DNA of 64,000 nt from Octopus vulgaris. Lineage: Eukaryota. Below are positions 1,683 to 45,308 of this stretch, piece by piece. The stretch spans positions 33,294,001 to 33,358,000 of the forward strand of contig OX597814.1 in the NCBI GenBank assembly GCA_951406725.2. The letters are read 5' to 3'. Both the position numbers and the translations under genes were made by a program. Under the pieces are notes generated by a model that saw only the letters and a list, made by a program, of their open reading frames with translations, searched no databases and had not been told where the DNA came from. Numbering within the stretch: position 1 is the stretch's first letter; each line of letters starts with the position of its first letter.

Positions 1683-1996
1683 ATAAAAAGAAGTTTGAAA
1701 ACGCCACTATATAAGATAAATTTTAATTTTCTTAGAGATTTTACATGTTACCACAGTTACAGCCAACGATTCAGTCAACACACAAGACAGTCATTATGCT
1801 CCTCACCCCTACAGAACACCACGACGTGGTCTCTGTTGAGACTAGTAAGAAACAATTATGAACTTTTTAAATTACACTTAACTTTTATGAATATTTTTGA
1901 TAAGCCTCGTTTTTTCAAGAAGAACCGAAACATGTAAAATCTCTAAGAAAATTAAAATATATCTTATATAGTGGCGTTTTCAGGCTTCTTTTTTAT
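1683..1996. repeat. Fold-back element (arms 1683-1749 / 1929-1996) with decayed hammerhead motif at 1893-1940 (+)
   Basis: Arms are reverse complements; ATTT-TTGATAA...GAAAC-AT-GTA-AAAT. Confidence 0.75.
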
Positions 1997-1998
1997 CA

Positions 1999-2490
1999 AT
2001 ATATATATATAAATAAAATATATCTAATACGTATGTTTGTATATATATATATGTGTGTATATATATATATATATATATGTATATGTATATATATATATAT
2101 GTCCCTATATGCATATACATATACATGTATGCATATATGTATACATATATATGTATATATCTTTTATATATATATATATATATATATATATATGTCTCTA
2201 TATGCATATACATATACATGTATGCATATATGTATACATATCTATATATATATATTTATATATATATATATATATATATATATATATATATATGTGTGTA
2301 TATATATATTTGTATATATATGTATATATATATATATTTATAAAAAGATAGATAGATTGATAGAAAGATAGATAGATAGATAGATAGATAGATAGATAGA
2401 TAGATAGATAGATAGATAGATAGATAGATAGATAGATAGATAGATAGATAGATAGATAGATAGATAGATAGATATGTTTTATACATATAT
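1999..2490. repeat. Compound (TA)n/(TAGA)n microsatellite
   Basis: Directly visible. Confidence 0.98.
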
Positions 2491-2494
2491 GTAA

Positions 2495-2670
2495 CTACAT
2501 GTGGACTTTGGGGGGTATTTTTCCAGCGCTTTCCTTTTCTCTTGGACTTTTGTCCCCTGTTTCTGAAGAAGAGCTTTACACGAAACGAAAAACACCCTTT
2601 CTTTCCTTCATATCCTCGTGTTGTATTTTCTGCGTTTGTTTTTTATTTTATTTTGTGGACTAATTATTAT
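2495..2670 (+). mobile_element. PLE terminal-repeat-like fragment with decayed hammerhead motif (2559-2593)
   Basis: GTTT-CTGAAGA-agagctttacac-GAAAC-GAA-AAAC; T-rich tail resembles the reverse complement of 35950-36010; flanked by microsatellite. Confidence 0.55.
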
Positions 2671-3873
2671 ATATATGCATACATCATCTCTCTCTCTCTC
2701 CGGCATATATATATAGCATATATATATACATATATGCATATATGCAATATAGCTATATATATATATATATATATATATATATATATAAATAGCATATATA
2801 GGTATGTGTGTGTGTGCATATGTGTGTAGCATACATGCGTATATATATATATATATATATATATATATATATATATGACATATATGTGTATGTATATATA
2901 AATATTTTAAATATATATATTACTGACACCGTTTTCTATACACCTTGCCACTCACCGAGACATTTTTGCTATCGGTGTAATATATTTTATCGACCCTAGA
3001 CAGTTGACTCACACAATGGAATCCTGTGGGTTTTCTTATCTTAACTAATGTGTGAGAAAGATATAAAGAGAATATTGCAAATTTTTGAGCCAATGGCAAG
3101 TCTTTCTACAGCAAATACAGCTTTTAGCTAATTTAGAAACACTCATTGCTCCTGTTTCCTTTGCATCGTGAACGAGCGATAACCTAGATTAACTCTGAGA
3201 CCAGTCGTATTACTTAGAACTCAATATTTTTTTATATTTTCATAGTTGATATATTCTATCAACTGAATTTTATTTTTAAGCACCATCCAGAAGAATATTT
3301 ATAGAAGTATCACTCTACTGAACATGATAAAAAATTAAATATTACTGTTACAATATATTTCGATTTTAAGTAACACGTAGAAGAAATCTGTTATAGTAGT
3401 ATTCTATGAGTGGTGGTGATTGGTCAGTGGTCAGTGGTCACTTGGTACGCAGAAACTTAATTATCAGCGGGGTTCAACATTTAATATTTTAATGTTTCTT
3501 TAAAATTAGTTCTACTCGTTATTGCAATTTATTAAAGGCTGCAATTTATAAAACTGTATATCAAAGGATCTTTTGCTTCCACTTATTCAATTTAACTTAT
3601 ACCTACTCGATCTTCACTACTATCAGCAAAATTCGCCAAGCTTCTTATGTAGGAAGTAGAGTTTCCTTCTCTCATGTCTGCTCCTATAGATATTTTCAAC
3701 ACTACTATTACTCCGAATCAAACCATCTCCAAGCAAACTACATGGACCACATAGCATTTCAACTTTCTGACTTATTAGTAGTGTTATCGAAGGCAGAACC
3801 AAACATCAGACTTTATATAGAAAATTTAATCGGTTAGAAATAAAAGTTATATTTTCTTATATTTCTAACAGAA

Positions 3874-43529: not shown

Positions 43530-43905
43530 ACTCTCTTTTACTATTTTACTCTTTTACTTGTTTCAGTCATTTGACTGTCGCCATGCTGGAACGCCGCCTT
43601 TAGTCGAGTAAATCGACCCCAGGACTTATTCGGTTGTCAAGCAATGTTGGGGGGACAAACACAGATACACAAACACACACACTCATATATATATATATAT
43701 ATATATATATATATATATATATATATACATATATACGACGGTCTTCTTTCAGTTTCCGTCTACCAAATTCACTCACAAGGCTTTGGTCGGCCCGAGGCTA
43801 TAGTAGAAGACAGTTGCCCAAGGTGCCCAAGGTGCCACACAGTGGGACTGAACCTAGAACCATATCGTTGGTAAGCAAGCTATTTACAACACAGCCAATC
43901 CTACT
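43530..43905 (-). mobile_element. SINE family A with an internal deletion
   Basis: Matches the family; GACTTATT joined directly to CGGTTGTC. Confidence 0.9.
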
Positions 43906-43909
43906 CTAA

Positions 43910-44420
43910 AGAAAATTACTTGCTAACTGATACCCAGCAAGGTTTCCGACCAGGACGAAGCACTCTGACACAGCTCTTACAACACTAGGACTGGGTGTTG
44001 AAACTTTTGCATAGCCGCTCATATATTGATGTGATACATCTCGACTTTGCGAAGGTCTTCAATAAAGTCGATCATGGAATGATATGTCGCAAACTGCGTG
44101 ATCTCAATATAGTCGGAAAACTAGGAAAGTAGCTAAATGATCTTTTGAATGACAGAAATCAGTTAGTAGCGGCCAAATACAAGAAGTGAGTGGTCTCTCA
44201 CAGTGCACTGTCTTGGGGCTGCGTCTGTTCAAAGTGGCCTTCTCAGGTATGCCCTCATCTATACAGAGAGCTACCCTGAAGGAGTTGAAAACGCTTTATG
44301 TACGGTAGTAGATGTCTTCAAAACAAAATGGATCTCCTACTGTCAAGAGTCCCAGATAAGCTAAAGTCGCGGTAGGAAGATGGGCTGAGGGTAGCAACAT
44401 CTAATTCTCTCGTTCACTAA
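43910..44420 (+). mobile_element. CR1/Jockey-like LINE RT fragment
   Basis: IDVIHLDFAKVFNKVDHGMICRKL; SGLSQCTVLGLRLF (SGVPQGSVLGPLLF motif). Confidence 0.85.
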
Positions 44421-44792
44421 ATGCCAAAAGGAGGATAAAAGGTGTTGAAGCAACACCAGTTAGTAGTGCCCCAGCATGGACAAGGACCTCGAGCTGAAAC
44501 TGATAAAAGTGTAAAGTGCATATAACTCCACACTCGTATATGAGGTGTGGTGACTTAAACATATATGGCCATGTGTTTGTGTGTGTGTAATTACACACAC
44601 ATATATAGAGAGAGAGAGAGTCAGACAGATACAGAAAGATAGATAGACAGAGAGAAAGAAAGTTTTATAAATATATATATATGCATGTATGTGTGTATAT
44701 ATATATATATATATATATATATATATATATATATATATATATCGTTCAGAGATTTATTATCGCTTATATATATATATATATATATATGGAAT

Positions 44793-45308
44793 TATATACG
44801 AAAGAAGGTTTGAAAATGCAATTTAAAAGATATTTATTTACTTTACCGGTTTTACTCTTTGGAAAAAGATTATCAAAAGTAACATGTGGAAGTTTGGTTG
44901 CGTTATTATTTCTGCTAAAACGGACAGGTCAGTAACAACCTCGCCACTACATTAATGTAAATCTTTTTGAATTCATAATATTCTGTCATGAACTTTTTTA
45001 ATAATTCCTCCTGGAAATTACCCTGAGATGTATAATATATTTGTTTTAATCTTTTCTGCCCATTTTTTCAATGAGCTTGTTAAACCTCTTTATATTCTCA
45101 ACATACTGTTGTACTTTTTTATGTCCTTAACATGTCCCTGTTTCCAAAGACTGTGTATATATTTGTAATGTAGCAATTTGCAACAACCAATAATTAACGC
45201 AACCAAACTTCCACATGTTACTTTTGATAATCTTTTTCCAAAGAGTGAAACCGGTAAAGTAAATAAACATCTTTTAAATTGCATTTTCAAACCTTCTTTC
45301 GTATATAT
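44793..45308. mobile_element. Fold-back element in (TA)n (arms 44793-44905 / 45195-45308) with hammerhead-like motif at 45218-45262
   Basis: About 113-bp inverted arms; TTACTT-TTGATAA-tcttt ttcc aaaga gt-GAAAC-CG-GTA-AAGTAA. Confidence 0.8.

Follow-up and report, generated by a model that had tools for sequence, protein, structure and literature searches.

Insertions of Penelope-like elements (PLEs) follow a canonical layout, in which an inverted 5'-truncated copy is present, a tail lies at one end, and the target is biased toward (TA)n (Craig et al. 2021, PMC8557442). In the Hydra and Repbase consensi that have a single sense motif, the same source places a hammerhead ribozyme ~90–210 nt before the 3' end; it also describes octopus families of the Hydra and Naiad types, among them Hydra-1_Obim of Octopus bimaculoides. 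Pairs of minimal hammerheads on opposite strands, 100–700 bp apart, and the U3-A8 core have been ascribed to truncated PLEs (Cervera and de la Pena 2014, PMC4209133). In vitro, Poseidon of Anolis carolinensis (PAc) cleaved and extended both target strands and used two internal RNA start sites (Frangieh et al. 2024, PMC11167929).

The 64,000-nt stretch of Octopus vulgaris DNA analyzed here (assembly GCA_951406725.2, contig OX597814.1, positions 33,294,001–33,358,000 of the forward strand; hereafter, the window) contains four short fold-back elements, at 1654–1996 (element 1), 12333–12903 (element 2), 36808–37007 (element 3), and 44793–45301 (element 4). Their identity as stumps of PLE insertions is very probable, and the explanation as a whole, that ordinary insertions by several PLE families in TA microsatellites left all four, is likely. 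The four are new families of a known kind.

Anatomy of the four fold-back elements

AT-rich and of animal type, the DNA of the window contains 146 rows of tandem repeats and many dispersed repeats. An earlier note, made from the sequence alone, had described four inverted-repeat elements flanked by (TA)n, and both parts of that description held: the arms are 93–100% identical, and a TA tract lies 1–6 nt from eight of eight ends (element 1 counted from 1654), against a background in which 5.1% of non-tract window positions are within 30 nt of such a tract. Insertion in (TA)n, the habit of endonuclease-bearing (EN+) PLEs (Hydra, Neptune, and Naiad), is common to the four. Judged by the direction of the ribozymes, each element comprises two copies of one 3' end fused at their 5' ends. 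An extra tail is borne by one of the two copies and measures ~30 nt (element 1), 153 nt (element 2), and 70 nt (element 3), whereas element 4 has no clear tail; the tail-less end lies at an internal TA-rich stretch. The one-sided tails, that of element 1 (1654–1682) included, were unreported earlier, as was the larger fold-back at 30681–32588 described below.

In element 1, two truncated 3' ends of PLE type face each other head to head and are bounded by TA tracts, with arms at 1674–1749 and 1929–2005 (77 nt, 93.5% identity). Its short, tail-bearing copy (1683–1749, minus strand) starts within hammerhead stem III, at -8 relative to the cleavage site, and is extended by the tail at 1654–1682 (minus strand), which was judged from the sequence of a single copy. 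The longer, tail-less copy (1750–1996, plus strand), to which the spacer presumably belongs, starts at -187. The arms of element 2 (12329–12455 and 12624–12750) are 99.2% identical over 127 nt; the tail-less copy (12333–12623, minus strand) is 5'-truncated at ~12624, at -238, and the tail-bearing copy (12624–12903, plus strand), which ends in the tail at 12751–12903, starts within the catalytic core at -70. Upstream of its ribozyme are motifs that we take to be CRE-like and TATA-like. Element 3 is a perfect 130-nt palindrome (36808–36937) followed by its tail (36938–37007), and its shorter copy starts at -38. In element 4, arms of 119 nt (44793–44910 and 45189–45307; 97.5% identity), the right one annotated to 45301, enclose a 278-nt spacer, and the shorter copy starts at -68. 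The ribozyme is 27–60 nt from the arm end in all four; none of the copies begins at the cleavage site, and every element retains the core upstream of it. Elements 1 and 4, which the earlier note had listed among four unrelated sequences, are in fact related, with ~60 terminal nt in common (z 4.4–5.5) and the same TTGATAA core.

Hammerheads were scored with a strict descriptor demanding an exact core (CTGANGA or TTGANAA), GAAAC, a palindromic stem III, GUH, and a stem I of at least 3 bp. Across the 64 kb it matched three times, in element 1 (plus strand, 1897–1936), element 2 (minus strand, 12458–12386), and element 4 (plus strand, 45224–45256); 100 block shuffles gave a mean of 0.02 matches (maximum 2), and shuffles of the individual elements gave 0, 1, and 0 of 1000 for elements 1, 2, and 4, respectively. 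The motif of element 3 (36877–36910, plus strand; mirrored at 36868–36835, minus strand) has an exact core and GAAAC, but its stem III is imperfect and stem I is lacking beside the core; it failed the strict test and passed a looser descriptor (2 of 1000 shuffles). The earlier assertion that each element carries an outward-reading hammerhead was upheld strictly for elements 1, 2, and 4, where a type-I hammerhead with palindromic stem III lies near the 3' end, and by the looser test only for element 3. The element 2 hammerhead (12380–12464, minus strand; core at 12458, cleavage after 12386) is intact, with a 54-nt stem II domain, and alone of the four it adopts the hammerhead fold by itself, as the minimum free energy structure (z -2.25; 4 of 200 shuffles). 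For the motifs of elements 1, 3, and 4, stability does not exceed that of shuffles. Damage to stem II is seen in element 1 (1893–1940, plus strand; U3-A8 core at 1897, long decayed stem II, palindromic stem III, cleavage after 1936) and in element 4 (45218–45262, plus strand; U3-A8 core at 45224, 6-bp stem I, cleavage after 45256), and the left-arm copy of the element 4 hammerhead has a G-to-A change in GAAAC. Among the best 150 of 378 Rfam matches, in which microsatellite matches predominate, there was no hammerhead family, and relaxed hammerhead descriptors did not exceed chance in the window (4 versus 2.4, 4 versus 2.6, and 5 versus 2.2).

The elements share with EN+ PLEs of the Hydra and Neptune clades the head-to-head inversion of a 5'-truncated copy, the tail at one end (unclear in element 4), the (TA)n target, and, close to the 3' end, a type-I hammerhead whose stem III is palindromic (PMC8557442). 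Element 3 also has the Hydra-clade core format (8-nt core, TGAA; proximal stem I missing), a likeness drawn by eye against File S2 of that paper. They differ from these PLEs in retaining no detectable open reading frame (ORF), in tails of 70 and 153 nt as opposed to 30–40 bp, and in the 54-nt stem II domain of element 2. By eye, no match was seen between the four elements and the ends of Hydra-1_Obim, Naiad_Obim, or Naiad_Ovul, and six short element motifs were not found in the excerpted supplement of PMC8557442, in which line breaks can hide matches. Solitary or paired motifs, U3-A8, long stem II, and palindromic stem III are shared with the minimal hammerheads of metazoan PLEs (PMC4209133); the excerpts of that source contain no inversion-joint map, and the window hammerheads are known from sequence only. 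PAc, with two reverse transcriptase (RT) starts that define the tail and an AT-rich target, is the basis of the mechanism proposed below, although it belongs to another clade and has a tail of 30–40 nt (PMC11167929). Animal non-long-terminal-repeat retrozymes (preprint 10.64898/2026.07.22.740005) are likewise non-coding, carry a type-I hammerhead, and derive from PLE ends; according to the excerpted preprint they consist of a fixed monomer repeated head to tail, each unit having its own ribozyme, whereas the window elements are head-to-head pairs of variable length. Thirty-one recently active PLE families are reported for Octopus vulgaris in the excerpts of PMC13282606, which make no mention of ribozymes; the repeat library of that study may already contain the element families. 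Within a literature search by title and abstract, with Repbase and Dfam outside its scope, neither a description of these families nor a map of PLE inversion joints relative to the ribozyme was found.

A PLE protein alignment was used to retrieve 80 metagenome loci. A strict hammerhead was present in 30 of the 80, with 32 matches on the ORF strand versus 3 on the opposite strand. The TTGANAA core lies downstream of the ORF match in four loci (L011, L012, L043, and L068); in L012 a full-length ORF is followed, 146 nt on, by the TTGATAA core that elements 1 and 4 also have, and in L030 the ORF sits between inverted hammerhead arms. No window element matched any of the 80 loci at the DNA level, and the stems of 26 metagenome hammerheads failed to align. 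Long tandem arrays (units of ~50–160 nt) lie beside a PLE-related ORF in L042, L057, L070, L073, and L080, those of L057 and L070 being downstream of a hammerhead.

Inversion joints in the element 2 family

Copies of element 2 were sampled by aligning public contigs from 4 of 24 runs to 12333–12903 at 80% likeness. The four runs yielded 1818, 1364, 808, and 67 matching contigs, and the family is of very high copy; summed depth over the element was 1e3–5e5 in the three large runs, a figure that is not a copy number, and depth per single joint (16–90) was orders of magnitude lower. There were 28 joints in all. The 19 distinct ones listed comprise 18 inversions, each an inverted 5'-truncated copy joined head to head as in the window elements, and one deletion in the tail; no two of the 18 are alike, and the highest depth is 89.7. 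Where contig matching ends at 12624, one common onward sequence follows (four contigs in run X3 and two in run X17), and a 339-nt contig in run X7 continues for 115 letters past this point. The family therefore extends at least 115 nt beyond the window copy, which is a truncation of something longer. Family depth falls upstream of the ribozyme and is at or near its minimum at the window copy's joint in all four runs. Variable 5' truncation with shared 3' ends was thus seen in this family, the only one examined in this way. A depth peak over 12833–12872 was also seen, as if many copies retained only the last 75–80 nt.

Filler letters (1–22 nt) are present at 12 of 17 listed joints, and two of the fillers resemble local inverted duplications. 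Joint statistics were computed on 16 skip-type joints; two "opposite strand" joints, whose four ends all lie outside the ribozyme, were excluded, and the tail-bearing copy is ambiguous where both joint ends fall inside the arms. Arm lengths at the 16 joints are uncorrelated (Spearman rho -0.12, P = 0.67). On the tail side, 5 of 16 starts fall at 12823–12829, ~130 nt downstream of the ribozyme. The tail region is no more structured than shuffles (z -0.03), and a hairpin account of this cluster is not claimed.

In the window, the arm boundary lies in stem III of the ribozyme in element 1, in the core in element 2, 4 nt before the core in element 3, and 35 nt before it in element 4. The earlier observation that three of the four inversion junctions fall within or next to the ribozyme (-8, -70, and -38 from the cleavage site, versus -68) was confirmed. 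Picking elements by their visible arms and motifs is itself a selection for joints near the ribozyme. In the element 2 family, 7 of 16 arm-side ends lie within the ribozyme (uniform expectation 31%, P = 0.21), as do 4 of 16 tail-side ends (29%, P = 0.73); at least one end does so at 9 of 16 joints, or 56% versus a geometric expectation of 51%, and of the 32 ends none comes as close as 3 nt to the cleavage site. That the joints lie close to the ribozyme follows from its position near the arm end and from the shortness of the copies. This small sample (n = 16) favors no role for the ribozyme in joint placement, with room left for a weak pause effect, and it favors two independent primers.

Sequence variation in the family is consistent with a conserved fold. 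Common variants restore both unpaired stem II positions, at 12447 (27–44% of depth) and 12448 (5–13%; 82% in run X7), and a variant at 12383 changes a stem I G-U pair to A-U (15–28% of depth in the three large runs); among the best 40 of 54 variant rows, none lies in the core, GAAAC, or stem III. The variants are unphased, so this support is not a covariation count. Across 12431–12448, variants with a minor share in the large runs make up most of the small run X7 (~56–83% of depth), as though a single subfamily were over-represented there. None of the runs is recorded as RNA; X7 may be, and it is not taken as a sign of expression. A search of metagenome, viral, and prokaryote contigs for an element 2 motif gave no match.

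Origin of the elements and of their inverted joints

The earlier note had offered two origins, and one of these, truncated insertions of several PLE families that share a TA target, fits both the anatomy and the literature. Four of seven features of a truncated EN+ PLE insertion were found; among the other three, no ORF remnant was detected, the tails of two elements are longer than published, and any target-site duplication would be hidden by the microsatellite flanks. ORF remnants of two PLE types elsewhere in the window, described below, also favor a PLE source. Variable junctions across copies had been put forward as the sign of truncated PLEs, and the comparison came out that way for element 2, the one family to which it extends. 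In the proposed mechanism, an RT–GIY-YIG protein would cut both strands of a TA tract, and each target strand would prime its own cDNA, an outer start giving the tail-bearing copy and an inner start the tail-less copy. As a rule both cDNAs would stall after no more than a few hundred bases, and their two ends would be fused by end-joining in the host, often with a few filler bases. Lying 27–60 nt from the inner end, the hammerhead would be carried along; its task would have been to process the long tandem transcript of the parent, and the stumps would not require its activity. The independent lengths and the fillers are the reason for invoking end-joining and a PAc-like mechanism, and on balance they tip the evidence slightly toward this two-primer route to the inverted joints.

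Several observations weigh against the PLE stump explanation. The four elements hold no ORF remnant detectable with a 16-sequence Neptune-like profile and tblastn, the autonomous partner of element 2 was not reached with the 30 letters of onward sequence visible, and the metagenome comparison was made without a shuffle control; the link of the four elements to PLE proteins is indirect. The tails of elements 2 (153 nt) and 3 (70 nt) exceed the published 30–40 bp, element 4 has no clear tail, and the perfect palindrome of element 3 suits self-priming better than two primers. The cluster at 12823–12829 (P = 0.006 under a uniform and 0.03 under an exponential null, post hoc) indicates that truncation is not fully random. 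Evidence across copies comes from one of the four families, from 28 joints all in short-read contigs, and the window copy's own element 2 joint was bridged by none of the 32 pieces listed of 4099.

The same stumps could have been inverted by self-priming fold-back of a single nucleic acid strand, as proposed for rotifer PLEs (PMC3846280). This route is a fair rival above all for the palindrome of element 3, and the larger fold-back at 30.7–32.6 kb also has a palindromic center; the two fillers that resemble local inverted duplications point the same way. At the 16 family joints, however, the two sides start at unrelated points and have independent lengths, and the direct copy often begins outside the duplicated arm, so that as a general account self-priming is doubtful. 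Still less probable is the suggestion of the earlier note that ribozyme folding or cleavage halts RT and fixes the inversion point. The three window copies with one joint end in or beside the ribozyme, and the 9 of 16 family joints with an end inside it, are what one would hope to see, but neither side of the joints is enriched there (7/16 and 4/16), no end lies within 3 nt of the cleavage site, the sole joint cluster is ~130 nt downstream of the ribozyme, and the 30.7–32.6 kb fold-back joins ~185 nt from its own ribozyme. Hammerhead mutants also left PAc insertion in vitro unchanged (PMC11167929). A junction defined by cleavage was rejected: a cleavage-defined 5' end would remove upstream sequence, and the four window copies keep sequence upstream of the site. 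The other origin in the earlier note, dedicated hairpin-shaped non-autonomous elements of a retrozyme-like kind copied as a fixed fold-back unit, would account for four similar small units with near-identical arms within 64 kb, and it is very improbable. The best element 2 joint has a depth of 89.7, far below that of the family (1e4–5e5), the 18 inversion joints differ, depth is at or near its minimum at the window copy's joint in 4 of 4 runs, the tails make the ends asymmetric, and hammerhead units are nowhere arrayed head to tail in the window. As far as contigs can show, a fixed hairpin family is refuted for element 2, as its joints differ between copies, none is of high copy, and the family runs past the joint.

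A further view is that the parent of element 2, and perhaps of others, was a linear, ORF-less, SINE-like PLE derivative of at least ~560 nt mobilized in trans, which we regard as unlikely. The very high copy number of the family, a 291-nt element 2 copy without an ORF remnant, and the atypical long tail and long stem II would all suit such a parent, and non-autonomous PLE derivatives have been described (PMC8557442; preprint 10.64898/2026.07.22.740005). Yet the visible region (~240 nt upstream of the cleavage site plus 115 more) is within the ORF-to-ribozyme distances of autonomous elements, which among the autonomous metagenome loci are 146 nt in L012 and several hundred nt elsewhere, and element 2 depth keeps dropping 5'-ward, as for truncated long elements. 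With little probability, element 2 belongs to an undescribed ORF-less SINE-like PLE derivative with very high copy, a long-stem-II hammerhead, a 153-nt tail, a preferred stop ~75–80 nt from the end, and joints made from two independently primed cDNAs fused by end-joining; if so, thousands of family 2 head-to-head joints would settle how PLE inverted insertions form. Least credible is that the fold-backs are assembly artifacts. A 100% palindrome (element 3) and an element 2 joint that is unbridged among the contigs listed are what an artifact might leave, but the arms differ by 1–7% in three elements, the flanks are unlike on the two sides, the tails are confined to one side, and joints of this type recur at other positions in independent runs.

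Three described classes were also considered and set aside. For retrozymes, no head-to-tail array of hammerhead units and no direct repeat of this kind is present in the window, and the element 2 family joints all differ where a fixed monomer length and junction are expected. Miniature inverted-repeat transposable elements (MITEs) or fold-back DNA transposons have symmetric terminal inverted repeats with fixed ends and a conserved internal layout, and the elements here have one-sided tails, variable joints (seen in the element 2 family), and a ribozyme cargo. Naiad PLEs, which have an N-terminal endonuclease and lack a canonical hammerhead, were rejected because canonical hammerheads are present and no by-eye match to octopus Naiad ends was seen.

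Other PLE-like sequences and motifs in the window

A decayed Neptune-like PLE ORF remnant (9900–10870, plus strand) retains an N-terminal part with a DKG motif and a weak linker match, and lacks the RT core; it is not assigned to the four elements. The ORF at ~9.9–10.9 kb matched the Neptune-like profile with E 3e-17. The surrounding stretch, 9220–11350, is a decayed Neptune-like PLE in which the DKG motif and the cysteine linker have no RT core between them, and it ends at a (CA)n tract. A full HMMER search gave 28 matches, and of the 11 scanned, two had GIY-YIG and two had RVT_1 Pfam matches; two window peptides gave nothing in Pfam, and short window peptides gave nothing in two word-indexed protein searches. 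At 25662–26845 (plus strand) lies a 5'-truncated, Hydra-clade-like PLE copy that matches Hydra-1_Obim by eye. It contains an endonuclease C-terminus and has the same fold-back layout as the elements, with a 26-nt inverted terminus (25662–25687 versus ~26817–26843) and coding sequence (25.7–26.3 kb) retained in the spacer. The inverted terminus is perfect, a very decayed hammerhead-like hairpin lies near 26715–26760, and there are no TA-tract flanks.

The larger fold-back at 30681–32588 carries outward-reading, long-stem-II hammerhead motifs (minus strand, 31286–31212, and a damaged copy on the plus strand near 32050–32130). Its center, near 31470, is palindromic, and a dispersed repeat is inserted at ~31580–32000 in the right arm. 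The arms are ~80–92% identical, stem III includes a U-A pair, and ~530 nt separate the ribozyme from the arm end. A short ATGAACTTTT motif recurs at 1855–1880, 44980–45005, and 32165–32185 (elements 1 and 4 and this fold-back) and may be a matter of chance. Two hammerhead-like ends within 4800–5450 (4901, minus strand, and 5350, plus strand; z 11.6) form an inverted pair that is old, diverged, and broken by later repeats. A 270-nt repeat with inverted copies at 3865–4129 and 5004–5274 (95% identical) interrupts this pair (4800–4934 and 5318–5450) with its second copy.

Of the further hammerhead motifs listed in the earlier note, the one at 8839 was borne out, and those at 2559, 5346, and 32663 failed descriptors that need stems I and III and are at best decayed. 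The first (8843–8872, minus strand) has a U3-A8 core with one mismatch and passes a structure-scored descriptor that allows it (3 matches versus a mean of 0.15; 0 of 100 shuffles). No inverted partner was found for it, and it was rejected as the end of the neighboring decayed ORF element, where it has neither an inverted nor a direct partner (z 0.1 and -0.5). The motif at 2563–2590 (plus strand) has an exact core, a broken stem II, and no GUH; that at 32669–32710 (minus strand) has one core mismatch, a stem II hairpin, a palindromic stem III, and a poor stem I. A relaxed scan added a decayed motif at 53649–53678 (minus strand), with two core mismatches and ~45 nt from a TA tract, which alone is not above chance; the stretch 53585–53700 looks like a decayed hammerhead-like end reading into a TA tract. 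The segments 928–1401, 11500–12200, 23000–24000, 33200–34100, 37084–37664, and 47045–47539 hold remnants that, by their translations and inverted ends, resemble LINE RT ends and DDE or mariner-type transposons.

PLE stumps of the kind that the four elements probably represent can readily be mistaken for MITEs or for new types of hairpin RNA. The way in which inverted PLE insertions arise and microsatellites are chosen was named an open question in PMC8557442; inversion could come about through self-priming, as in PMC3846280, or through two-strand priming, which derives from PMC11167929. Useful by-products of the analysis are the independence of the arm lengths, the filler bases that occur in joints, and the 153-nt tail, and a high-copy family that keeps both truncation points together with the filler bases makes the question of inversion countable in a single assembly.

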